Part shown: positions 11,010 to 22,690 of the stretch, piece by piece
How the letters are laid out: each line of letters opens with the position of its first letter
Position numbering within the stretch: the stretch's first letter is position 1
Assembly: GCF_988242995.1 (NCBI RefSeq)
Contig: NZ_OZ547043.1
DNA: 64,000 nucleotides
Strand: one strand, 5' to 3'
Made by a program: the position numbers and the translations under genes
The notes under the pieces: generated by a model
Databases searched by the model: none
The model's input: only the letters and a program-made list of their open reading frames with translations
Told to the model about the DNA's origin: nothing

Positions 11010-12779
11010 ACCGACTCCTGATTCAAATGTATGATGGTATTCATTGAACAGAACAATGGATCCCCCACCGTTGCTGACCGCAAAACATTTACGCGATTAA
11101 TACTGCGCGTAATATAATTAAAAATCCAGCATTCTCAATCCATTACGAAATAAGATGGCATTACGGAATAGCCAGACTTTCTCGTGTTAACGTCCGACAA
11201 AATGCGTCATTGACAGCGGTTTCTGTGGATTGACACATTTCATTCAGATAATGAATTAATGCTACTGCCGGACCAACCAGCAAACGGGCATTGTGTTCTG
11301 AAATCCAGGCTATTGATTCAACGTCAGCGACAGATCTGCGCTGTAAAAGAACTTGTAAAACAACGCAATAGAATTATCCGGAATGGTGGCGACTATGCAC
11401 TAGAACACCACAATTTCGCTCTCTCGGTAAGGCACTGTCACAGCATTCAACAGAATGTGACTTGCCAGATTTATTAGCGCCACCAGATGTTTAACCGGGT
11501 AACCACGACCCAGTCGGGGATATATTCCATCTTCTCGCTGACATCATCAAGAATAAAAAGGTTTATCACACTCAGAGCAACGTTCTTCAGCAGGCGGGAT
11601 AATTCTTCAACATTTAGAAGATGTGTTATTAAAGGCATACAAACTGGACGTATTGTATTTTCTTTTGGTGGTTGACCTAAGGTAGCAGTTTATCCTGATG
11701 CGCTGAGATTTCTGTAATATCTACGTCAACATTCTCCTCGAATAGAAAATGCAGCCCCGGCAAGTGATTCACATTTTTTAACAAAACGTTGTTAGCGTGC
11801 CATTTTCAGAAGCTCTCCAAGAAAGCGAATTCTTTTCTCAAATTCTGCATTCTCAGACACAGCTTTCTACTCCATGGCAATGGCCCAAATACGAAGTTGC
11901 TCAGGATCATTAGTGGTGCTGAGAAGTTAAATAACCATGCGGAGTACCACTCGTCATCACGTATTTATATATCATGAAGCTATTGTTGTGTTTTGTACAT
12001 CAGTAGATGTATTCTGATATACTCCTTTTGCTAGACATAACCTTTCACCTGCTTGCAAAGCTTCTGTGTTCTGACATTGCCAAATTGTTGCAATTCTGTA
12101 TCCAGCCTTCTTTCAGTCATAGCTTCGGGCCGCGATAAGACTCACTGATCTGACCCTGATTCCTCTTGCAGACTTTATAGACCAATTAAAATGCAGTTTC
12201 TGCAGGTCAACGTCTGACCATCATTGTCATCACTCTGGCCATTAGAGTAACCTTCTGCATTCATCCTTTTGTAAAAAGTTTATAGACTGGCCCCCTGAAT
12301 CTCCAGACAACCAATATCACTTAAATAAGTGATAGTCCTGATACAAGTTTTTAGAGTAGTCATTAGTGAACAGATAATTGTTAACTTAGAACCAGTAAAA
12401 TGCAAACGACGCACCACGCTGGGAAAATCGCTGCTATTCAGCAGAGTTTTGTACCGAGAATTGTGGCCAGCCACTTATTGCTCTCGCGTAAGCAGGTATC
12501 CCCATCGTTTACCAGTCCAGCACATCTTGTGGTCAGGCAGAAGAAGAGCAAACTGTTACTGGACTCACTGCATGCATGGTGGAGAAAAATGCCACGCTAT
12601 CCAAAAATCCAGACTGGGAGAATGGTTCAGCTGTGTACTGAATCAGTGGGGCGCACTCTGTTATTACAGTGTTGACGGTCAGGCGGAGGCAGACATAATG
12701 CCGCGGAAAAAGCCCTTTGTGCCATCTGTCTCGGAAATAAAAACTCTTATGACCTTTGTCAAATATTGAGCCCAAAAAG

Positions 12780-14186
12780 ACCTTACGCAGCTCCGGGAGC
12801 TTCGTTATATCGCGGATTAAAGAACCTGAAACAGTCAGACTGTATCTTGGATTTTACAAACTCTTATTCGGGGATTTTAGCCCCATGACGATTTACGCAG
12901 TGAGCTGGCCTCTTTCTATATGCAGGTATTGGCGCATTCTGACCTCCTGAATTCTTTTACGAGGATCACTCATTCCGTGTCTGACTGCTTCAGGGTTTAA
13001 TTTTGCTTCTGCTGACTGAATGATGATTGGGCAGCAAGTGCAATATCCCACATAAATCCAGTCAACTCACGAGCCACCGCCGTAATGGCTACTTGTGATT
13101 TTTTCCCTTTTGCTGTCAGACTTCGGTAACGAGAACACAATCGTTGTTGAGCTTTCCATGCAATATCTTTGGAATATTGTGTTACAGAATCCGGTCGGTA
13201 ATATATAAGCCATGCACCAACTTTTGCAGGTGTACGATAAGACCAGGCGGCTTCGTAAAGCAGACGTCTCAGTTCGCTGTTTCCAACTTTTGTTATTCCC
13301 CTGGGACGAATGCTGTTTCCACTGGAATATTCCCCTGGAACCAGTCCCAGAAAAGCCATGAGTTGTTTGGGACTGGAAAATCGTGAAAAATCACCCAGTT
13401 CAGCAACCAGGGTTATTGCGGTTAGCTGACCAACACCTTTAAGGGCCTGTAACTGGCAGACCAGATTGCACAGAGACCACTCAGGTAACAGGCGGGATAT
13501 TTCCTGGTCGAGTTGAAGTATGCGATCTTCAATCTGCTCCAGACTCTGACAATAGTGTTGAAAAGCAATCTGTTGAGATGGCTGACTAAATGATTGATTG
13601 GCTAACCAGGTTCGATGTTTGCCGGTCCAGTGCTTCCCTGCATAACGTTTGTCTGTTCGCAATAGCATGCTCAGAATTCGCTGTCGGGCAACTCTGCTGT
13701 CTCGTTTAGCTGCTGCACGGGCTCTGATTAGATCCCGCATAGCTTCATGAGTCAGGTCAGGGATCCAGACAGGGGTAAGTTCACCAGCCCGCAGTAACCT
13801 GGCAAGAGAAATTGCGTCCCGATGATCATTTTTGATTCTGTCTGTCGGTGATTTTGGTATCCGGGAAGGGGCAATAACCTGGCATTTTATATTCATCGCT
13901 GTGAGTTGATGATATAGCCCAAAACCACAGGGGCCAGCCTCATAGCAGGAAAGAATGTTTCCGTAAAGTCCCTGCAATTTCTGAAATAATCGACGTACAG
14001 CCTGGGCTTCGTTGTTAATCGTACCATAATAACGAACTTCGCCAAGCCGTTCAGGTGCAGCAATAGCAACCGCCAACGTTTCTTTATGTACATCCAGCCC
14101 GATGTAAGCTGCAATATTTTCCGAATGCATAATGACCTCCTCTGGAATATCCCACCAATGCTATAGTGAGTATATAAAGGTCATAC
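12780..14186 (-). mobile_element. IS110-family insertion sequence (boundaries approximate, 3' end not determinable by eye)
   Basis: Transposase 12997..14130; upstream end abuts a truncated IS66 tnpC remnant at about 14187; no terminal inverted repeats expected for this family. Confidence 0.4.
12997..14130 (-). CDS. IS110-family transposase (DEDD/RuvC-like)
   Basis: 377 aa; N-terminal YIGLDVHKETLAVAI motif typical of IS110-family transposases; RBS GAGGAGG upstream. Confidence 0.8.
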   Translation of the reverse strand: MHSENIAAYIGLDVHKETLAVAIAAPERLGEVRYYGTINNEAQAVRRLFQKLQGLYGNILSCYEAGPCGFGLYHQLTAMNIKCQVIAPSRIPKSPTDRIKNDHRDAISLARLLRAGELTPVWIPDLTHEAMRDLIRARAAAKRDSRVARQRILSMLLRTDKRYAGKHWTGKHRTWLANQSFSQPSQQIAFQHYCQSLEQIEDRILQLDQEISRLLPEWSLCNLVCQLQALKGVGQLTAITLVAELGDFSRFSSPKQLMAFLGLVPGEYSSGNSIRPRGITKVGNSELRRLLYEAAWSYRTPAKVGAWLIYYRPDSVTQYSKDIAWKAQQRLCSRYRSLTAKGKKSQVAITAVARELTGFMWDIALAAQSSFSQQKQN

Positions 14187-14189
14187 CAT

Positions 14190-14412
14190 CTTTATGTTCT
14201 TCGGCGGCGAGCGCAGTGCACTGTTGTATGGGCTTATCGGCACCTGCCGTCTGAACGACATTGATCCGGAAGCGTATCTGCGCCATATCCTGAGCGTACT
14301 GCCGGAATAACCTTCCAACCGTATTGATGAACTCCTGCCATGGAACGTAGTTCTCACCAATAAATAAGCATCAATATGATTCTCCATTAACGCTTACCTT
14401 TTCTCAGGCTAT
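14190..14412 (+). mobile_element. truncated IS66-family 3' end (tnpC C-terminal remnant plus terminal repeat), diverged
   Basis: Translates to FFGGERSALLYGLIGTCRLNDIDPEAYLRHILSVLPE and PSNRIDELLPWNVVLTNK, matching the C-terminus of TnpC at 23289..24902; ends with degenerate IS66 terminal repeat ...cgcttac. Confidence 0.6.
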
Positions 14413-14505
14413 TTTTGCTTTTTTTTGCTTTTCCCCGCCACTTTATGGTGATTATCACATCAATATACATCGATAGATATTAACGTAACTGCAGTGAGGT
14501 GAAGC

Positions 14506-15720
14506 ATGAAATTTGAACGCCATCATGAAATATTGAAACGACTCAGTAAATTCGGTTCTGTAAAAGTATCCGATCTGTCCAATAGCCTCAATGTAACGAA
14601 AGAAACTATTCGTTCAGATCTTAATGAACTTGCCAGGCTTGGCTATCTGACTCGATGTCATGGCGGTGCTTTTATCGTCCTAGACTCGCTTGATACTATT
14701 GCGAAAAATGAAATCGCTTATGCGCTTGAAAATTATGATACAGCCCAGGGAATAAAAAAAGGCCACTCAACTATGAAAAGTCAAGTATGCGTTATTGGTT
14801 CGTTTAATGTTGATATCATCAGTTATTTGCCGAGGCTTCCCACTATCGGAGAATCGCTTCTGGCAAGTAATTTTATATTTTCACCGGGGGGAAAAGACTG
14901 TAACCAGGCGCTGGCAGCAAGCTTTGCCGATACTGATGTTTATTTCATAACAAAAGTAGGTACAGATCACTTTAGTGATTATGCGATCAACTTTATGAAT
15001 TCGTCTAAGATTTATAAAAGTATAATTTATCAAACGAAAGAAACGCAAACCGAAACTGCCACGATCCTTGTTAATGAAGGTACTGGCGATAATGTTATTG
15101 CGATCTATCCCGGTGCCAACATGACAATGTCGCCCGATGAAATAACTATTCAGAAAGAAGCGATTATTAATTCTGATGTCATACTTCTGCAGCTCGAAAC
15201 AAATTATACCGCTCTGCAACAAGCGATCACATTGGCGCAAAAAAACAGTATCCCGGTCATTATTAACCCGGCACCCTATAATGATATCGTCAACGAACTT
15301 ATTCAGGATGTTGATTATATCACCCCCAATGAAACAGAAGCTGGTTTACTGTCCGGCATAGACGTACACGATCTTGAATCAGCTAAACGAGCTGCAGAAG
15401 CTATCCACAATAAAGGGGTAAAAAACACGGTTATCACGCTCGGTAGCAAGGGCTCGCTCGCATTTGATGGCAAAAAATTCATTCATTCGCCAGCGTTTCC
15501 AGCGGTCGTTAAAAATACGGCAGGAGCCGGGGATGCGTTTAACGGCTCTCTGGCATCAGGACTTGCGAAAGGAAAATCACTGGAATCAGCACTGTGTTAT
15601 GCCAGCGCCTTTGCATCCCTAGCGGTGGAGACAAGCAATGCTTCCGACATGCCTGAACATGAATCTGTGATACATCGAATTCAGAGTATACATTATCAGC
15701 AAACTATTTTTACGCATTAA
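14506..15720 (+). CDS. DeoR-type HTH domain fused to PfkB/ribokinase-family carbohydrate kinase
   Basis: 404 aa; N-terminal DeoR-like HTH (VKVSDLSNSLNVTKETIRSDLNELARLGYLTRCHGGA) then PfkB body with GAGDAF signature near C-terminus. Confidence 0.7.
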   Translation: MKFERHHEILKRLSKFGSVKVSDLSNSLNVTKETIRSDLNELARLGYLTRCHGGAFIVLDSLDTIAKNEIAYALENYDTAQGIKKGHSTMKSQVCVIGSFNVDIISYLPRLPTIGESLLASNFIFSPGGKDCNQALAASFADTDVYFITKVGTDHFSDYAINFMNSSKIYKSIIYQTKETQTETATILVNEGTGDNVIAIYPGANMTMSPDEITIQKEAIINSDVILLQLETNYTALQQAITLAQKNSIPVIINPAPYNDIVNELIQDVDYITPNETEAGLLSGIDVHDLESAKRAAEAIHNKGVKNTVITLGSKGSLAFDGKKFIHSPAFPAVVKNTAGAGDAFNGSLASGLAKGKSLESALCYASAFASLAVETSNASDMPEHESVIHRIQSIHYQQTIFTH

Positions 15721-15733
15721 GAAGGGACAGAGA

Positions 15734-16492
15734 ATGAATAACACCAAAAAATCACTAAAAGTGCTCTTTATTGGGGAATCCTGGCATATTCATATGATTC
15801 ATTCAAAAGGATATGACAGTTTTACCTCAAGTAAATATGAAGAAGGTGCGACCTGGTTACTCCAGTGTCTGAAAAATAGTCAGGTAGATGTCACCTATAT
15901 GCCAGCACATACGGTACAAATTGCCTTCCCTGAAGATGTGGCACAGTTAGAACAATATGATGCCATCGTTATTAGTGATATTGGTAGTAATACTTTCCTG
16001 CTACAAAATGATACTTTTTATCAGCTTCGCATAAAACCAAACGCTCTCGAACTGATTAAAGAATATGTGAATAACGGTGGTGGGTTATTGATGATTGGCG
16101 GCTATCTCTCATTCATGGGAATTGAAGCAAAAGCCAATTATAAAAATACAGTTCTGGCTGATGTGCTCCCGGTTACGATGTTAGATGGTGACGATCGTGT
16201 CGAAAAACCAGAGGGTGTTATTGCACAGCCATCACAACCTGAACATCCAGTTATTAAAGGGTTCTCTGAATATCCTTTTTTCCTAGGTTATAACCGGGCG
16301 ATCGCTAAAGAAAATGCTGAGGTGGTATTAACAATAAACAACGCTCCATTACTGGTCTTTGGTAACTATCACAACGGGAAAATAGCCTGCTTTATGAGTG
16401 ACTGTTCACCGCACTGGGGTACACAGCAGTTTATGTCCTGGCCGTTCTATACCGCGTTGTGGGTAAATATACTGACTCATATTGCAAGATAA
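15734..16492 (+). CDS. hypothetical protein, possibly class-I glutamine amidotransferase-like fold
   Basis: 252 aa ORF immediately downstream of the kinase gene (14-nt gap); fold assignment is pattern-based only. Confidence 0.5.
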   Translation: MNNTKKSLKVLFIGESWHIHMIHSKGYDSFTSSKYEEGATWLLQCLKNSQVDVTYMPAHTVQIAFPEDVAQLEQYDAIVISDIGSNTFLLQNDTFYQLRIKPNALELIKEYVNNGGGLLMIGGYLSFMGIEAKANYKNTVLADVLPVTMLDGDDRVEKPEGVIAQPSQPEHPVIKGFSEYPFFLGYNRAIAKENAEVVLTINNAPLLVFGNYHNGKIACFMSDCSPHWGTQQFMSWPFYTALWVNILTHIAR

Positions 16493-16548
16493 TAATAATA
16501 ATGGGGTAACTCCAGTTACTCCATTTACTATAATAGAAGGATTGATGT

Positions 16549-17514
16549 ATGAAAAAGAATAAGTACTCAACTCCCTTATGGATGCTTGCCACGATTCTTG
16601 CGGGTATGCTCTCCCCTATGCAATCAGCGGTGAATGGTCAATTAGGTCACTGGTTACAGGATGGTAATGCATGCGCAGTTATCTCCTTTGCCAGTGGTTT
16701 AGTCGTGATGTTTTTTATTATTATGGCGCGAAAAGAAACCCGGCAACAATTTGCGGCAATTCCTTCTCTGATTAAAAACCGAAAAGTTCCTCTCTGGAAC
16801 TGGTTTGCCGGTCTCTGTGGAGCGATGGTGGTATTTTCTGAAGGCGCATCAGCCAGCGCACTCGGGGTCGCAACGTTTCAAACCGCACTGATCTCCGCGC
16901 TATTGCTGTCTGGTTTACTTTGCGATCGCTTTGGTATCGGTGTCGACGAGAAAAAATACTTTACCCCTTATCGCATCATCGGTGCATTATTTGCGGTTAT
17001 TGCTACGATTTTTGTTGTGTCACCTCAGTGGCATTCTACCTCTTTCATCTTACTTGCCATTCTTCCGTTCTTAGCTGGTTTGCTTGCAGGATGGCAGCCC
17101 GCTGGAAATGCAAAAGTAGCTGAAGCTACGGGATCCATGCTGGTTTCAATCACCTAGAATTTCATCGTTGGATTTTGTGTTTTAGGCACAGCGCTAGCTA
17201 TTCGTGTCGCATTAGGGCACGTCACTGTTCAATTACCAGATGTCTGGTGGATGTATCTTGGCGGCCCGCTTGGACTAATGTCTATCGGTTTAATGGCCAT
17301 TTTGGTCAGAGGTCTGGGGTTACTGATGCTGGGGGTTGCTTCAACGGCGGGCCAGTTACTGGGATCAGTATTGATTGACGTATTAATTCCATCGCTGGGC
17401 AATAGCGTTTATCTGGTCACGATCATCGGAACACTGTTTGCACTGGTCGGTGCAATTGTTACCACTATTCCGGAATACAGAACCTCGAAAACAATGAAGA
17501 AAATGGAGGTATAA
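16549..17514 (+). pseudogene. DMT/DUF606-type membrane transporter with single in-frame amber stop (TAG at 17155..17157)
   Basis: ORFs 16549..17157 and 17251..17514 are in the same frame; only one TAG interrupts a continuous about 320-codon hydrophobic reading frame. Confidence 0.5.
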
Positions 17515-17516
17515 TC

Positions 17517-18551
17517 ATGAAAGATTATCTACAAACTGTGACGGGCCCCGTCGCCCGTGAAGATATGGGGCTAACACTTCCTCATGAACATCTGTTCAAC
17601 GATCTTTCCTCTGTTGTGGATGCTCCTTGCTATCCTTTTTCACAACGGCTTGTTGATAAAAAAGTCACGGCAGAAATCCAGTGGGCATTAAAACACGATC
17701 CTTATTGCTGCGCTGATAATATGGACCGCAAACCTATTGAAGATGTGATCTTCGAAATTAATAACTTTATCTCGCTCGGTGGTCGCACCATTGTTGATGC
17801 CACAGGGTCTGAGTCTATCGGACGAGATGCGCAGGCATTACGAGAAGTCGCATTAAAAACAGGTCTGAATATTGTTGCTTCCTCCGGTCCCTACCTGGAA
17901 AAATTTGAAAGCCAGAGAATTCATAAAACGGTTGATGAACTGGCGACAACGATCGATAAAGAATTGAATCAAGGGATTGGCGATACGGATATTCGTGCCG
18001 GAATGATCGGTGAAATAGGTGTTTCACCGACATTTACCGAAGCCGAGCATAACAGCTTGCGGGCTGCCTCGCTGGCACAGATTAACAATCCTCATGTGGC
18101 GATGAATATTCACATGCCGGGCTGGCTTCGTCGCGGTGATGAAGTACTCGACATTGTGTTAGGTGAAATGGGCGTCTCGCCAAATAAAGTCTCTCTCGCA
18201 CACTCGGATCCGTCAGGAAAAGACGTGGCGTATCAGCGGAAAATGCTTGATAAAGGTGTCTGGCTGGAATTCGACATGATTGGCCTAGACATTACCTTCC
18301 CGAAAGAGGGAATAGCGCCAGGGGTGCAGGAGACTGCCGATGCCGTCGCTCATCTCATTGAGTTGGGTTACGCCGATCAGCTTGTTCTCAGCCACGATGT
18401 CTTCCTTAAACAAATGTGGGCTAAAAATGGCGGTAATGGCTGGGGATTTGTTCCAGATGTTTTTCTGGCCTATCTGGCGGAGCGCGGCGTCGATAAAACG
18501 ATCCTCAAAAAACTCTGTATCGATAATCCCGGACGATTATTGACCGCATAA
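17517..18551 (+). CDS. phosphotriesterase-related protein (PHP/amidohydrolase family)
   Basis: 344 aa; N-terminal GLTLPHEHL metal-binding motif typical of phosphotriesterase homology proteins. Confidence 0.8.
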   Translation: MKDYLQTVTGPVAREDMGLTLPHEHLFNDLSSVVDAPCYPFSQRLVDKKVTAEIQWALKHDPYCCADNMDRKPIEDVIFEINNFISLGGRTIVDATGSESIGRDAQALREVALKTGLNIVASSGPYLEKFESQRIHKTVDELATTIDKELNQGIGDTDIRAGMIGEIGVSPTFTEAEHNSLRAASLAQINNPHVAMNIHMPGWLRRGDEVLDIVLGEMGVSPNKVSLAHSDPSGKDVAYQRKMLDKGVWLEFDMIGLDITFPKEGIAPGVQETADAVAHLIELGYADQLVLSHDVFLKQMWAKNGGNGWGFVPDVFLAYLAERGVDKTILKKLCIDNPGRLLTA

Positions 18552-18595
18552 AACCATTATCCCCCGGCACATTGCGCCGGGGGATGTCAATTAAT

Positions 18596-18957
18596 ACCCC
18601 GCCGTTAAATCATCCACCAAGCGCGAGTCGGATGCGCCGTACAACTCACCATCCGACCCAACCATAATGCTTTGCGTGCTGCCCATCGCCTCATTCAGCG
18701 CCACTTTCTGACCTTTTGCATCCAGCAGCTTGAGCGTATCCGGACTAAACCCTTTTCAACACGCAGCTCGTCCGGCAACCACTGATAGTGGAAACGAGGC
18801 GCATTGGTCGCTTCGGCAACATTCATTCCACAATTGATGCTGTTCACCACCATTTGCAGCACGGTAGTGATGATCCAGCTACCGGTAACAAAGTGAGTAC
18901 ATAAAGGCCATACTGTCACGAACAGTGCAAAAGTGGCTCTTCCGCAACCTGGGTGAA
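18596..18957 (-). pseudogene. 3' remnant of a gamma-glutamyltranspeptidase gene
   Basis: Minus-strand translation gives ...NAPRFHYQWLPDELRVEKG and, after a frameshift, GFSPDTLKLLDAKGQKVALNEAMGSTQSIMVGSDGELYGASDSR, a GGT C-terminus. Confidence 0.6.
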
Positions 18958-20600
18958 GATTTTCATGCCAGTGGACTCATTACCCTCCGCCTAAGTAGTT
19001 CAAGTCCGGCTCGACCATACATCTGGCGTATCAGCACCTTCAGGCGATTTACATGACCTTCGACAACACCAGTACTCCAGCGACTGCTGATTGCCTCACA
19101 TATAGCCGCAGCATCAGCTTCCATCCCCGCAGCTACGCACCGAAGTTCTGCTGAGCCGCTTTCGTGGACCCGAGTGAACCAGCTGCTTAGCTGTGATTTA
19201 TTTTAGGTTTTCAGAATACGGTAGAACTCGAGTACCAGTTGCTGCGCTATTTTCAACTCCGGTTCTTTTTCACACATCAGACTAATAAATCGGAAAGCAT
19301 AATTTTCTTCACCCCTGATTATTCTCCAGGGCATCAACCAGCGGCTTACCCGGGACACTGAAGGAAGTCTTGCGGCAGTAGTAACCGGTGGGATCCAGCC
19401 TTTACGCCATTTGGCAACAGCATCCCTGACGATGGTTTCACTGCCTGTAACCCCCCTGGCCACCATTTCCCGCCATATCCGGCCGGAGTTATAATTACCA
19501 CATTCTCGTTGCTCTTTTAACCACTCCCTCCATGGGTCCAGAAGCCCTCGCTTTGGAGGCCTAGTTGACATTTCAGGGAATGTTCCTGAACCCACCCAGC
19601 GACTGACTGTCACTCGCGACAGGCCTGTAATACGGGATATTTCCCTGAAACTACATCCCTTGTTATGCAGGGCCATAACCTCTGTCCAACGCTGATGCCG
19701 TTTTTTGCGGATGTGCTGTTTAAGGCGTTCCAGACGACGGAGCGATGCTACAGGCACAGATATTTCTGGCTCAGGTGATTTCTTCAGTGATAACTCTCTG
19801 ACAACAAGACGTATCAGAGGCATATGTCTGTACATCATTCGTTCAGGCTCATCACCAATATTTTTTAGCAGGTGCCATCGATCGGCCACCTGTCTGGCCT
19901 GAGGTGCACCTTCACGTGCTGCTGTCGCATAGACTCCACTGCGATCACGCGAGACAACCTGTATTTCCGGATATTTTCTGAACCAGGTCGCCAGCGTACG
20001 CTGATCACGGCCGGGAAGCAGGACGAGGGGACGGTGAGTATCAAGATTGACTATTAACATACCGCAGCAGTGGCCCCGATGCCACGCCCACTCATCAATA
20101 CCGACATGAGGCGCGCCTGACTGTTTCGTCTCCGGGGTATTGATAACCCTGCGAAGAAGAGTATCAGCACTGCAACGGAGACCCGCTGCCGTTGCAGCCC
20201 GTTTTCCAGCCTCACCTCCAGCTATTAATCCCAGTTGACGTTGTAAATTTTGTAACGCCTGTGAAGACTGCTGGTGTGAACCGGCGAAGGGAGCAAGCGA
20301 CTCGGCAAAAATTTTACGTGAACAAGCCGGGTTACGGCAGTACCAGTGGCGGACGGAAAATACAAGCCATAGCGTCTGCCCTGAGCAGGGTAGATGCTGT
20401 ATCCGGCGCCGACGACAACTATGAACAGAGTCGCTACGCTTAAAGCATTCAGGACATTGTGCTGTTTTGCGTTTTCCGTGGAGATGGAGGGTTATACCGT
20501 CAGAGCTAATAATTTGTCGACTGCATCGCCATCCGCAAGGTAACTGTAGAAGTGTCTTAAGAGAGTGCATTGCGTTGCCCATAACTTAAAACAGCTTAGA
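18958..20600 (-). mobile_element. ISL3-family element with disrupted transposase (boundaries approximate)
   Basis: Transposase reading frame broken near 19200; no terminal repeats identified by eye. Confidence 0.4.
19203..20582 (-). CDS. ISL3-family-like transposase (N-terminal and central part)
   Basis: 459-aa ORF with Cys-rich zinc-finger region, GIDEWAWHRGH...LIVNLDTHRPLVLL DDE-like core and VADRWHLLKN; the conserved ISL3 C-terminal motif (STGVVEGHVNRLKVLIRQMYGRAGLELLRRRV) lies in another frame at 18960..19200. Confidence 0.55.
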   Translation of the reverse strand: MGNAMHSLKTLLQLPCGWRCSRQIISSDGITLHLHGKRKTAQCPECFKRSDSVHSCRRRRIQHLPCSGQTLWLVFSVRHWYCRNPACSRKIFAESLAPFAGSHQQSSQALQNLQRQLGLIAGGEAGKRAATAAGLRCSADTLLRRVINTPETKQSGAPHVGIDEWAWHRGHCCGMLIVNLDTHRPLVLLPGRDQRTLATWFRKYPEIQVVSRDRSGVYATAAREGAPQARQVADRWHLLKNIGDEPERMMYRHMPLIRLVVRELSLKKSPEPEISVPVASLRRLERLKQHIRKKRHQRWTEVMALHNKGCSFREISRITGLSRVTVSRWVGSGTFPEMSTRPPKRGLLDPWREWLKEQRECGNYNSGRIWREMVARGVTGSETIVRDAVAKWRKGWIPPVTTAARLPSVSRVSRWLMPWRIIRGEENYAFRFISLMCEKEPELKIAQQLVLEFYRILKT

Positions 20601-20865
20601 TCCTTGTTCGCCAGAAAGTTTCATCCATTTTCTTCCACCCAGGTTGCGGAAGAACCACTTTTCATCCGTCGTTGACAGATGTGAAGTATGCGGGAGAAAA
20701 AGTGAATATCTAACTGTAATAACTCAGACCGGTACGAGTACTCGGAACGTCTACAATCATTCAGGGCAAAGTGCTAAAATTTCTCTATCCCGGGATGCCC
20801 CTACCAACGCAGCACTCCCGGAGATATCATTACAGCTCTGCAACTGATTTCCGCGACTGAACCGC

Positions 20866-21276
20866 TCAGTTCCTATCCTTCCAGTTGCCTTCCTGCAGCC
20901 CCCCCTCCCTGCTGTATACCCCGGTACCACAACGCGGGCAGCACTTTTCTCCTTCATAATCTTCGTCACACATCACACAAAACCACTTTCTCACCTTCAC
21001 CGTATAATCCGGAACCGTCATACCCTGCAGATGCAAACGACGGGCCTCTTTCTCTGCCGGGTCAAGCCAGGTGCATCGCAGCAGGATTTTCTCAGCGACA
21101 GTCATCTGGTCATGTTCAAACCACGGTGGTTGTCCGTCATTGCCCCGCTGAAGTGTTAACGGGCATCCACAGGACACACAGCACAAAACGTCCTGGCGGT
21201 TGTGCTTCGCTGCTTCTTTCGCCGTAACAAAATGGCCTTTGCTGTCATTCGCCATATAACAGTTCAGAATTCGCAT
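20866..21276 (-). CDS. Cys-rich zinc-ribbon protein (paralog 2)
   Basis: Start at MRILNCYMANDSKGH preceded by AGGAGG; CxxC...PWFEH...CxxC...CxxC pattern shared with upstream gene. Confidence 0.5.
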   Translation of the reverse strand: MRILNCYMANDSKGHFVTAKEAAKHNRQDVLCCVSCGCPLTLQRGNDGQPPWFEHDQMTVAEKILLRCTWLDPAEKEARRLHLQGMTVPDYTVKVRKWFCVMCDEDYEGEKCCPRCGTGVYSREGGLQEGNWKDRN

Positions 21277-21671
21277 ATTTCCTCCTGAGTTGTCCGGGGA
21301 ATACTGAATCCTCCGGTCTGGCAGTGTGTGCAGTACCGCTCCCCATAATAATCGTGGTGACATTGTCTGCAGTGCCAGCTGGCTTTACGCACCACGGGTA
21401 AGGCATCCGGTACGAATTGCTGCAGACGTTTAATCAACTGTATTTCTCTGCGCTCCGGCCTGACATAAGGGCACTGTTGACCGTGCTCTGTCAGCCTGTC
21501 GTCAGTGTGTTCAAACCAGGGAAGTTCAGTGTCGTATTGCGGATGGTATCTGAGTGCACTGCCACACAAGTGGCAGGTGTAGTTAGCATAAGGTGCGGCC
21601 TGTGCAGTACGGGCGCCCGTCAGACGTCCGTTGCCATCAAGAGCGATAAAGGATTTTGCGTACATAGTCAT
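21264..21671 (-). CDS. Cys-rich zinc-ribbon protein (paralog 1)
   Basis: 135 aa; CHLCGSAL...PWFEH...CRQCHHDYYGERYCTHCQTG; overlaps the downstream paralog by 13 nt. Confidence 0.5.
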   Translation of the reverse strand: MTMYAKSFIALDGNGRLTGARTAQAAPYANYTCHLCGSALRYHPQYDTELPWFEHTDDRLTEHGQQCPYVRPERREIQLIKRLQQFVPDALPVVRKASWHCRQCHHDYYGERYCTHCQTGGFSIPRTTQEEICEF

Positions 21672-21924: not shown

Positions 21925-22494
21925 TCAACTCCGGCTACAGCCAAAATTGCGCTCACCGGTGCAGTGAGCTTTGGTATGTTCCTTCGCCAGATAGTCAGCA
22001 CGTTCCAGCACCTGCTGAAAGCCAGTGTCATCATCGCGTTCCAGCCACACCGCCGGCCAGGCCGGAAAATGCACCAGCGTGGCATGGCACCCGACATCCA
22101 CTCCCAGGGCACTGCACCACGCCTGTTTAATCATCCCGGCCAGTGATCCCGGAGCACGGTAATCACCGGCACGACACCAGGTATCCCGGTTAACCAGCAG
22201 CATCAGGTGATAGTGTTTTTTACCTTTGCACTCCCCAAACTCCCGGGCCCAGACGTAATGCAGGGTGGTGGGATGCACGCGTTTACCTTCCCGATGCTTA
22301 CGTTTCTGGTAAGCGTCGATTCGGGCTTTCAGGGCATTGATGAAGCGGGATATCACAGCTGCGTCCGTTGCTGCCGGTACATCCGGGAAACGCAGGTCAA
22401 CCCGCAATGCCGTCAGGCGGGGATGAACATTCAGTGCGTGCCGCACCGTCTCACGAATACGTTGCTGCCAGAAGGGGTTGTATTTGTAGGTCAT
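21925..22494 (-). CDS. YfjJ/YagK-like (inovirus Gp2-type) prophage protein
   Basis: Start at MTYKYNPFWQQRIRETV with GGAG RBS; resembles YagK/YfjJ family of CP4-type prophages (recognition from memory). Confidence 0.55.
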   Translation of the reverse strand: MTYKYNPFWQQRIRETVRHALNVHPRLTALRVDLRFPDVPAATDAAVISRFINALKARIDAYQKRKHREGKRVHPTTLHYVWAREFGECKGKKHYHLMLLVNRDTWCRAGDYRAPGSLAGMIKQAWCSALGVDVGCHATLVHFPAWPAVWLERDDDTGFQQVLERADYLAKEHTKAHCTGERNFGCSRS

Positions 22495-22690
22495 GGTTAA
22501 ATCTCCGTATGGTTCATACGGAATAGCCACGTCGTAAAAAATGCGCAGAGTCCCTGAAGTGACCTCCGGCAGGACACTGTCTCAGGCACTCTGTGATAAC
22601 CCGAACGGTCGTCTCCGGACTGACGGTTGAATTTTCAGCGTTGTTTTTTTAATGTAAAAAACCGGTTACGGGTAAGGCTGTGAGGAGGGA

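Follow-up and report, generated by a model that had tools for sequence, protein, structure and literature searches.

A short 3' piece of ggt lying beside a damaged insertion sequence (IS) raises the question of whether a second, functional ggt once resided at this position in Escherichia coli and was broken by the insertion, or whether the piece reached the locus as a fragment. The stretch of DNA analysed, referred to here as the window, is 64,000 nucleotides long (contig NZ_OZ547043.1 of NCBI RefSeq assembly GCF_988242995.1). A first-pass annotation had proposed that an ISL3 element truncated a resident ggt paralogue and thereafter decayed itself. Our analysis leads to a different answer, as the locus is probably a junction scar without function inside an E. 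coli genomic island, with the ggt stub as a passenger of a captured module.

The ggt remnant occupies 18591..18884 on the minus strand and comprises 97 codons and a stop, corresponding to residues 484-580 of K-12 GGT. The first-pass annotation had correctly seen a frameshifted GGT-like remnant on this strand but drew it too long, at about 120 codons (18596..18957), and the part of that span at 18914..18957 is in fact the left inverted repeat region of the IS. The TAA stop codon of the stub (18591..18593) is the same as that of E. coli ggt. Over 295 nt the stub shares 92.2% DNA identity with the 3' end of K-12 ggt, and E. coli ggt was the nearest sequence found; identity to Citrobacter and Salmonella ggt is 81-82%. 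The frameshift is a deletion of one nucleotide in a run of T at 18753..18756, where the plus strand has four T compared to five in native ggt (GTCGAAAAAGGG in K-12 ggt aligning with GTTG-AAAAGGG in the stub). Adding one base is enough to regain a continuous GGT C-terminus, and the translation repaired in this way matches K-12 GGT residues 477-580 by BLASTP with E=4e-60. The PF01019 profile recognises the stub with E=3.7e-10 and 39.7 bits (cutoff 27) over profile positions 420-465 of 512. Since homology begins only at residue 484 of 580, the stub is not a complete GGT proenzyme: signal peptide and large subunit are absent, as is the catalytic Thr391, which we take to be the autoprocessing nucleophile of the enzyme (E. 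coli numbering). Further GGT-like sequence, including the 5' part of ggt, was not found anywhere in the window. RefSeq annotates the identical sequence as a pseudogene, 'gamma-glutamyltransferase, frameshifted, missing N-terminus'. A 74-aa open reading frame at 18695..18919 was considered as a gene and rejected, being a chance frame that runs from the spacer described below through the ggt stub as far as its frameshift.

The stub ends tail-to-tail with a gene for a phosphotriesterase-related (PTE) protein. A GC-rich hairpin with a 13-bp stem (18559..18585) lies between the stop codons of this convergent PTE gene (18549..18551) and of the stub; its arms, 18559-18571 and 18573-18585, are 92% complementary. 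Judging from position alone, it is probably a bidirectional terminator shared by the two. An Rfam scan of the whole window gave no match in or near the stub or the IS, and its hits (three tRNAs, the His leader and STnc240) are all elsewhere.

What stands next to the stub is a complete, 1764-bp ISEc38-like element of the ISL3 family on the minus strand (18914..20677), with TGTCA...TGACA at its ends. Its limits are the positions at which homology to plasmid copies of ISEc38 starts and stops, and the alignment to ISEc38 (a name we use as in the NCBI annotation of intact copies) is free of gaps over 1764 nt with 95.52% DNA identity. By ISfinder convention, elements of about 95% DNA identity are the same IS, and the copy in the window would thus count as ISEc38, although as a borderline case. 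Both terminal inverted repeats, at 18914..18955 on the left and 20636..20677 on the right (plus-strand coordinates), have one mismatch each to those of ISEc38. When the arms are paired with each other (18913-18955 with 20636-20678), they are 81% complementary over 43 nt.

The transposase gene of the element (18963..20582, minus strand) has 1620 nt and 540 codons in one frame, interrupted by one internal stop, and it equals in length the intact ISEc38 transposase of 539 aa. Compared codon by codon with WP_072003777.1, it differs at 74 nucleotides and has no indel; of the codon changes, 31 are synonymous and 38 non-synonymous, and the protein is 93% identical, differing by Q460* and 37 other amino-acid changes. 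The premature stop is the sole lesion of the gene and lies at 19203..19205, with TAA in the place of the CAA found in all six aligned plasmid copies of ISEc38. What the first-pass annotation had read as a C-terminal motif out of frame is consequently a nonsense mutation, as 18963..20582 is a single frame when set against intact ISEc38. The 79 in-frame codons beyond the stop (18966..19202, minus strand) encode the conserved ISL3 C-terminus (...TGVVEGHVNRLKVLIRQMYGRAG...), and the 53-aa open reading frame at 18963..19124, which matches PF01610 profile positions 196-239 of 240, is in the frame of the main one.

The remaining open reading frame of 459 aa (19206..20582 on the minus strand, or 19203..20582 with the stop) has a usual ATG start. 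The assignment of an ISL3-family transposase made in the first-pass annotation holds for it, as it exceeds the cutoffs of three profiles: the PF14690 zinc ribbon at residues 40-84 (29.2 bits, cutoff 25.5), PF01610 at residues 160-257 (E=5e-16, 59.7 bits, cutoff 23, profile positions 1-105 of 240) and NF033550 (259.5 bits, cutoff 180, profile positions 1-287 of 370). If the stop is read through, the NF033550 match rises to 347.6 bits against the same cutoff of 180 and extends over profile positions 1-368 of 370. The frame retains the Zn ribbon, the putative catalytic residues D163 and D213, and an IS21-like HTH insert at residues 303-394, where NF033546 matches. The last 79 residues are lost, including the putative catalytic E508 (VVEGHVNRLK); D163, D213 and E508 were all assigned by motif. 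An uninterrupted transposase with the full DDE triad is thus not encoded, the EG.N...K motif (profile positions 288-370) lying past the stop. Judged from its sequence, the element is a pseudogene member of the ISL3 family, and RefSeq describes the identical sequence as 'ISL3 family transposase, internal stop'.

The nonsense mutation is not particular to this window. The first base of codon 460 was T in all 13 chromosomal copies checked, which include lineages about 1.6-2% divergent; twelve have TAA and one (L102) has TAT. In other E. coli lineages the gene has collected additional lesions (stops at residues 88 or 113, indels of 1-2 nt and a deletion of 457 bp), in agreement with the earlier claim that the IS has decayed. 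A long open reading frame with a normal start, all of its predicted DNA-binding parts and a widespread Q460* allele might suggest that the truncated transposase has been kept as a working protein, which could inhibit incoming ISEc38 by binding DNA or act as a regulator. We give this reading next to no probability, since the stops, frameshifts and large deletion arose in independent lineages and dN/dS among the island copies is near neutral at 0.54-0.78 (on few changes); the value against ISEc38 is 0.33.

How the IS came to its present position can be approached from its flanks, GGCCATAC and GATGTGAA. The adjoining 5-mers are CATAC and GATGT, and no shared repeat indicating a target-site duplication was found at any length between 2 and 8 bp. 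Most ISL3 members duplicate 8 bp of their target. At two independent plasmid copies of ISEc38 we found duplications of 5 bp (ATTAC and GTACT), and the missing duplication bears on the history of this copy, not on its family membership. In the literature, ISEc38 appeared only in listings by MGE-finding programs, with no account of its ends or of a target duplication, and a search for the target duplication length of ISL3 elements returned nothing useful. An empty site, with the right flank free of the IS, was not found either: a related island (L100) loses homology left of 20891, so that, compared to it, the island studied here has 213 bp of its own at 20678..20890. In another genome (L099) the copy is the same module in a relocated position.

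The IS does not adjoin the ggt stub immediately, as had been thought, but is separated from it by a spacer of 29 bp (18885..18913, plus strand), counted from the end of ggt homology to the IS end. The spacer shows no ggt homology, although its positions 18885..18889 could be residual ggt, provided that 12 bp were deleted between two GGTAGC repeats. Its final 22 nt (18892..18913, AGTGAGTACATAAAGGCCATAC) match, on the same strand and at 20 of 22 positions, the sequence at 14165..14186, which is the end of an intact copy of ISEc45 in the window; the boundaries of that element were fixed using an empty site. The match ends 3 bp before the ISEc45 terminus and includes no coding part. Shuffled sequence gave no match. 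When the whole 1452-nt ISEc45 was used as a BLAST query, the 22-nt match with its two mismatches had E=0.29, and for the 29-nt spacer compared to the window the chance estimate was about 1e-4, for a match that was first spotted by eye. With an artificial ISEc45-ISEc38 junction as megablast query, the island copies align 22 nt into the junction, and a complete ISEc45 abutting ISEc38 was found at no place with at least 80% coverage. It is probable, albeit not proven, that 18892..18913 was left over from the right end of an element of the ISEc45 type (IS110 family). An ISEc45-related element (L105) was considered as a nearer source of the spacer and rejected, its end being no closer.

These observations bear on the idea that a functional second ggt lived here, was split by an ISL3 insertion and was left with an IS that decayed later. 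Genes are commonly truncated by IS insertion, the IS here is defective, and the stub is only 29 bp away from it. A simple insertion should, however, have left a target duplication, as ISEc38 makes ones of 5 bp, and the missing 5' part of ggt would be expected past the IS, whereas it is present neither there nor elsewhere in the window. The spacer resembling an IS110-family end intervenes between stub and IS, and conserved synteny with the neighbouring cluster, to which we return below, accounts for the stub. In addition, the 5' 1425 nt of ggt behave as a single-copy sequence in E. coli, with 5,433 places in 5,425 genomes, and the search with this region indicated a second ggt in none of them. 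An intact ggt paralogue beside the PTE gene, with which the first-pass annotation had hoped to compare the locus, was likewise not found in a spread sample of complete E. coli genomes or in a context look-up by exact protein; the sampled strains with the PTE gene have the same ggt truncation or larger deletions. We consider it unlikely that a resident paralogue was split in this manner. In a variant of the idea, ISEc38 may have inserted into ggt within the donor, with rearrangements following later.

The neighbouring genes point to the preferred reading, the arrival of the stub as a passenger. The stub closes a module of 4.47 kb (14411..18884, plus strand) which encodes a DeoR-PfkB kinase, a GATase1-like protein, a DMT transporter (carrying W203* in this window) and the PTE protein, to whose gene the stub is convergent. 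The whole of 14411..18884 is colinear, with about 76% DNA identity, with loci in Salmonella enterica subsp. diarizonae and three Citrobacter genomes, and the homology to these loci stops exactly at 18884. In the three Citrobacter genomes the same cluster lies tail-to-tail with a full-length ggt, which is the native gene, with yhhA and ugpQ after it. In S. diarizonae the cluster and a convergent ggt are seen in a partial view of the locus. Because the cluster lies tail-to-tail with ggt in both groups, the stub most likely arrived together with the pfkB-GATase-DMT-PTE cluster. A scan that covered, outside E. coli, one genome per species yielded no donor whose ggt exceeds 95% identity to the stub. 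At its left end the module is bounded, within about 13 bp, by the 3' part of an IS66-family element (14190..14397, plus strand), which includes a C-terminal fragment of tnpC. RefSeq marks an IS66 transposase fragment at these coordinates, and their terminal sequence, ...ACGCTTAC, is presumably an IS66 inverted repeat and the apparent end of the element. The host site is the E. coli genomic island adjoining cobU, where K-12 has CP4-44.

As the closest relative found for the stub is E. coli ggt itself, at 92%, and native ggt alleles are diverse (94-100% identical to K-12), the stub might also be the 3' end of the strain's own ggt, brought here by ectopic recombination or by IS-mediated duplication within E. 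coli. This origin seems very unlikely to us. Every native allele sampled differs from the stub by 7.5-9.5%, and the sequence past the stop codon of the stub leads directly into the PTE cluster, an arrangement shared exactly with Citrobacter and Salmonella but not with the native E. coli locus.

A passenger origin would thus start from a relative of E. coli with a ggt about 8% different from that of E. coli, at whose ggt locus the module would have been excised or captured. The stub would then be a carried fragment rather than what is left of a paralogue that formerly functioned here. The break in ggt would have been joined by illegitimate recombination to the scrap of about 22 nt from an IS110-family, ISEc45-like end, a step that is probable. 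The lack of a target duplication suggests that at least one flank of the IS was replaced after its insertion, and either a neighbouring deletion or recombination of IS copies with each other could account for such a replacement. With the last 79 residues removed by Q460*, among them the putative E508, the IS would be unable to move itself. A transposase from a plasmid-borne ISEc38 could in principle mobilise it in trans, since both of its ends are intact. That the 459-aa product acts in some lineages as a chromosomal trans-acting inhibitor of plasmid ISEc38, or that the dead copy is a hidden non-autonomous element carried by roughly half of the complete E. coli genomes, would be highly improbable.

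The arrangement at 18400..21000 was found in 2,580 of 5,426 genomes, and the region is 100% identical in E. coli 55989, O104:H4, S88 and others. The junction is old and neutral, because it is common to about half of complete E. coli genomes and decays further in some lineages. It is an ordinary record of past DNA shuffling with no working function, and both pseudogenes are already annotated in RefSeq. Its importance beyond correct annotation is small. It can nevertheless be read as a stack of IS scars and hence as a small worked example of island assembly, in which the ggt piece marks the edge of the imported four-gene module and gives no evidence for a former second E. coli ggt. The Q460* allele together with the junction sequence offers a stable marker for tracing the island across the many genomes that carry it. 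Furthermore, ISEc38 is routinely reported in E. coli genomes by MGE-finding pipelines, and some of these reports may reflect this dead chromosomal copy.

Among known systems, the locus resembles that of Citrobacter and S. enterica subsp. diarizonae, which has the pfkB, GATase1-like, DMT and PTE genes and the convergent ggt in the same order and orientation; here, in contrast, the module sits in an island beside cobU and is flanked by IS remnants. The IS agrees with ISEc38 of E. coli plasmids in its length, ends, 540-codon frame and domain layout, including the IS21-like HTH insert, but whereas the plasmid copies are scattered, the copy in the window is chromosomal and fixed at one island position. 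ISEc45, an IS110-family element with an RNA-guided transposase, is present intact in the window at a distance of 4.7 kb, although the scrap in the spacer may derive from a related element rather than from ISEc45 itself. Finally, compared to E. coli ggt (b3447, glutathione hydrolase proenzyme or gamma-glutamyltranspeptidase), the stub holds just 17% of the gene, is followed beyond its stop codon by sequence unlike that 3' of the native stop, and is not a second functional copy.

The transposase frame in the window lies between the arms of an imperfect 43-nt inverted repeat (18913-18955 and 20636-20678), and BLAST against plasmids gave homology across 18914..20677, at 95.5% identity, to elements whose transposase carries the NCBI name 'ISL3-like element ISEc38 family transposase'. 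The ends read TGTCA...TGACA, the window copy has no indel when aligned to two plasmid copies, and its length of 1764 bp is shared by all plasmid copies and most chromosomal ones. The intact ISEc38 gene has 1620 nt and encodes 539 aa, and the window equivalent also has exactly 1620 nt (18963..20582, minus strand), with one internal stop in single-frame translation, at codon 460, which is TAA in the window (19203..19205) versus CAA in ISEc38. The window carries a pseudogene copy of ISEc38 itself or of an element very closely related to it, and the ISL3 family proposed in the first-pass annotation agrees with both this match and the NCBIfam ISL3 model, of which the truncated ORF covers positions 1-287 of 370 and the read-through translation 1-368. 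The conserved C-terminal motif (...VVEGHVNRLKVLIRQMYGRAG..., PF01610 profile positions 196-239), thought at first to be out of frame, is in the same frame as the 459-aa ORF (19206..20582), and the stop is the sole interruption. Judging from motifs, D163 and D213 are putative catalytic residues, and the part lost to the stop would include the putative third, E508, and then K515. No function is expected of the transposase because its C-terminal catalytic part is gone. As each inverted repeat is only one base off ISEc38, a plasmid ISEc38 could perhaps move the window copy in trans.

Among 13 aligned chromosomal copies (the window, L001, L005, L007, L008, L010-L014, L099, L101 and L102), codon 460 is TAA in 12, including copies 98.1% and 98.4% identical to that of the window, and the remaining one, L102, has TAT together with frameshifts. 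Extra lesions occur in single lineages (a stop at residue 88 or 113, 1-2-nt indels, a 457-bp deletion). This distribution indicates that the stop predates the spread of the island in E. coli and that decay has gone least far in the window copy, and the earlier suggestion that the IS itself had decayed holds, with further lesions in other lineages. All six plasmid copies have CAA and four are intact, the other two having a 1-nt deletion (L003) or a stop at residue 345 (L098). The dN/dS values, 0.33 for the window copy against ISEc38 and 0.54-0.78 among island copies, rest on few changes and fit relaxed constraint. It is unlikely that the 459-aa product has been retained as an inhibitor, since earlier stops exist in other lineages.

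Beside the element lies a fragment of a ggt (gamma-glutamyltransferase) orthologue. The Pfam domain G_glu_transpept was matched within a 74-aa ORF (18695..18919, E=3.7e-10), and DNA alignment to K-12 ggt gave 92.2% identity over 295 nt, only from the stop codon (18591..18593) to 18884 on the minus strand. The stub thus has 97 codons, not the roughly 120 estimated before, and the former upper limit, 18957, falls in the IS inverted repeat. It is frameshifted, as had been noted, by the loss of a single nucleotide from an A-run on the coding strand (plus-strand T-run 18753..18756), and repairing the base gives an unbroken peptide matching GGT residues about 484-580. Everything that activity requires is missing, the nucleophile Thr391 included, and with 17% of the gene left and a frameshift no function is expected. 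On the minus strand, 18885..18895 (GTTACCGGTAGC followed by TGGATC) can be read as native ...GTTACCGGTAGCCCAGGCGGTAGCCGGATC... minus 12 bp between two GGTAGC repeats; assuming such a deletion, 18885..18889 could still be ggt and the homology would extend 5 nt further, to 18889.

The stub and the IS are both real, while the coordinates and the out-of-frame claim of the first-pass annotation were not upheld. Of its history, an ISL3 insertion that truncated a resident ggt paralogue, only the decayed ISL3 element is supported. Perfect 5-bp repeats (ATTAC and GTACT) flank the plasmid copies L003 and L098, but the window copy has no target duplication (left flank CATAC, right GATGT), and tblastn with K-12 GGT found no other GGT-like sequence in the 64-kb window. 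The 5' 1425 nt of ggt occur 5,433 times in 5,425 genomes, that is, as a single copy, and 29 bp separate the end of ggt homology from the IS. Taken together, these sequence features argue against a simple insertion into ggt. Strains with an intact paralogue at the locus did not appear either: all sampled genomes bearing the phosphotriesterase-related (PTE) gene share the truncation, because their match runs up to the IS boundary at 18913, and look-ups of exact-protein context agreed. The native E. coli ggt (reference L004:1082-2824) falls into distinct allele classes, with 1,898 of 5,425 genomes reaching only 90-95% identity to K-12 across the 5' 1425 nt, a high divergence for a core gene that may reflect recombination at the locus.

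The last 22 nt of the spacer are probably a scrap of an IS110 element end. This stretch, 18892..18913 (AGTGAGTACATAAAGGCCATAC), agrees in 20 of 22 positions with 14165..14186 (AGTGAGTATATAAAGGTCATAC), same strand, where an intact IS110-family element (12745..14196) has its right end, with an RNA-guided 377-aa transposase (12997..14130, minus strand; 279.9 bits on NF033542; ISEc45 family in RefSeq). An empty site in strain P13-6 set its limits at 12745/12752..14189/14196 (1445 bp, 7-nt CTTTATG at both junctions), and the match stops 3 bp before the terminus, directed outward to ISEc38. With the whole ISEc45 as BLAST query the match has E=0.29, and for the 29-nt spacer alone against the window we estimate about 1e-4; shuffled window sequence gave no comparable match. 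No genome was found with a whole ISEc45 directly adjoining ISEc38. The ISEc45 insertion interrupts an IS66-family tnpC remnant in its 3' part and is polymorphic, the site being empty in P13-6 and 55989. Several further ISEc45 copies adjoin IS66 transposase genes, which suggests a preference for targets inside IS66 elements, and about 250 nt of non-coding sequence downstream of the ISEc45 gene could hold a guide RNA.

With one genome per species searched, the nearest PTE relatives were in Citrobacter (87-88% aa) and S. enterica subsp. diarizonae (85%), and 14411..18884 aligns colinearly to these loci (DNA identity about 76%), the homology ending exactly at 18884. In three Citrobacter loci a convergent full-length ggt follows 50 bp after the PTE gene, and the available Salmonella sequence stops within ggt. 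In Citrobacter this is the native ggt, with yhhA and ugpQ after it in the same order as in K-12 (81.6% identity over 2.9 kb). For the stub, identity is 92% to E. coli ggt and only 81-82% to Citrobacter and Salmonella ggt, and the cluster genes share 74-79% identity with their counterparts there. In the simplest reading, the donor would be a lineage whose ggt has diverged by about 8% from that of E. coli, in which the cluster lay tail-to-tail with ggt and shared with it the hairpin 18559..18585, and a segment from just upstream of pfkB into ggt would then have been transferred to the island. Both module edges are IS ends, as the left lies about 13 bp past an apparent IS66-family end (...ACGCTTAC at 14397) and the right meets the IS110-like scrap and ISEc38; this fits IS-mediated capture or deletion, whichever element made the cut.

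The cluster (14411..18551) comprises genes for a DeoR-PfkB kinase, a GATase1-like protein, a DMT transporter and the PTE protein. Among the PTE relatives (loci L015-L093; whole-cluster conservation checked in a few Enterobacterales), those 72-88% identical are from Citrobacter, Salmonella diarizonae, Klebsiella, Budvicia, Providencia and Proteus, and those 44-64% identical include many Actinobacteria (Georgenia, Actinotignum, Streptomyces, Pseudonocardia). The cluster seems to be decaying differently by lineage, since the DMT transporter (16549..17514), intact (321 aa) in other strains such as L008, carries W203* in the window (TGG to TAG, 17155..17157), whereas in strain K99S it is the neighbouring GATase gene that has a frameshift.

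Many complete E. coli chromosomes (e.g. 55989, O104:H4 outbreak strains, S88, O145:H28) match the stretch 18400..21000 at 100% identity, and 2,580 of 5,426 complete genomes cover at least 80% of it. In 55989, RefSeq lists, in this order, a PfkB-family kinase, a glutamine amidotransferase, a DMT transporter (internal stop), a phosphotriesterase-related protein, 'gamma-glutamyltransferase, frameshifted, missing N-terminus', 'ISL3 family transposase, internal stop', two zinc-ribbon proteins and an inovirus-Gp2-family (YagK/YfjJ-like) protein. Both pseudogenes are already annotated. The wider order is asn-tRNA genes, cobUST, the island, cbtA/cbeA, yeeS/T/W, yeeA, sbmC and dacD, and the island occupies the position of CP4-44 in K-12. 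Two adjacent overlapping paralogues (20866..21671), each with DUF7828 and Zn_ribbon_11 domains, and then the YagK/YfjJ-like gene (21925..22530) belong to the typical cargo of CP4-type islands; these genes recur in a related island, L100, whose homology to the window is lost left of 20891.

For a member of the ISL3 family, the ISEc38 transposase (intact in L002:1550-3169) is unusually long at 539 aa. Residues 303-398, which follow the second putative catalytic Asp and precede the Glu, form an insert of about 100 aa with a match to the N-terminal HTH module of IS21-family transposases (NF033546, 60.7 bits, below cutoff). ISL3 elements usually duplicate 8 bp of their target, and ISEc38 differs from them in making 5-bp duplications at two independent copies.
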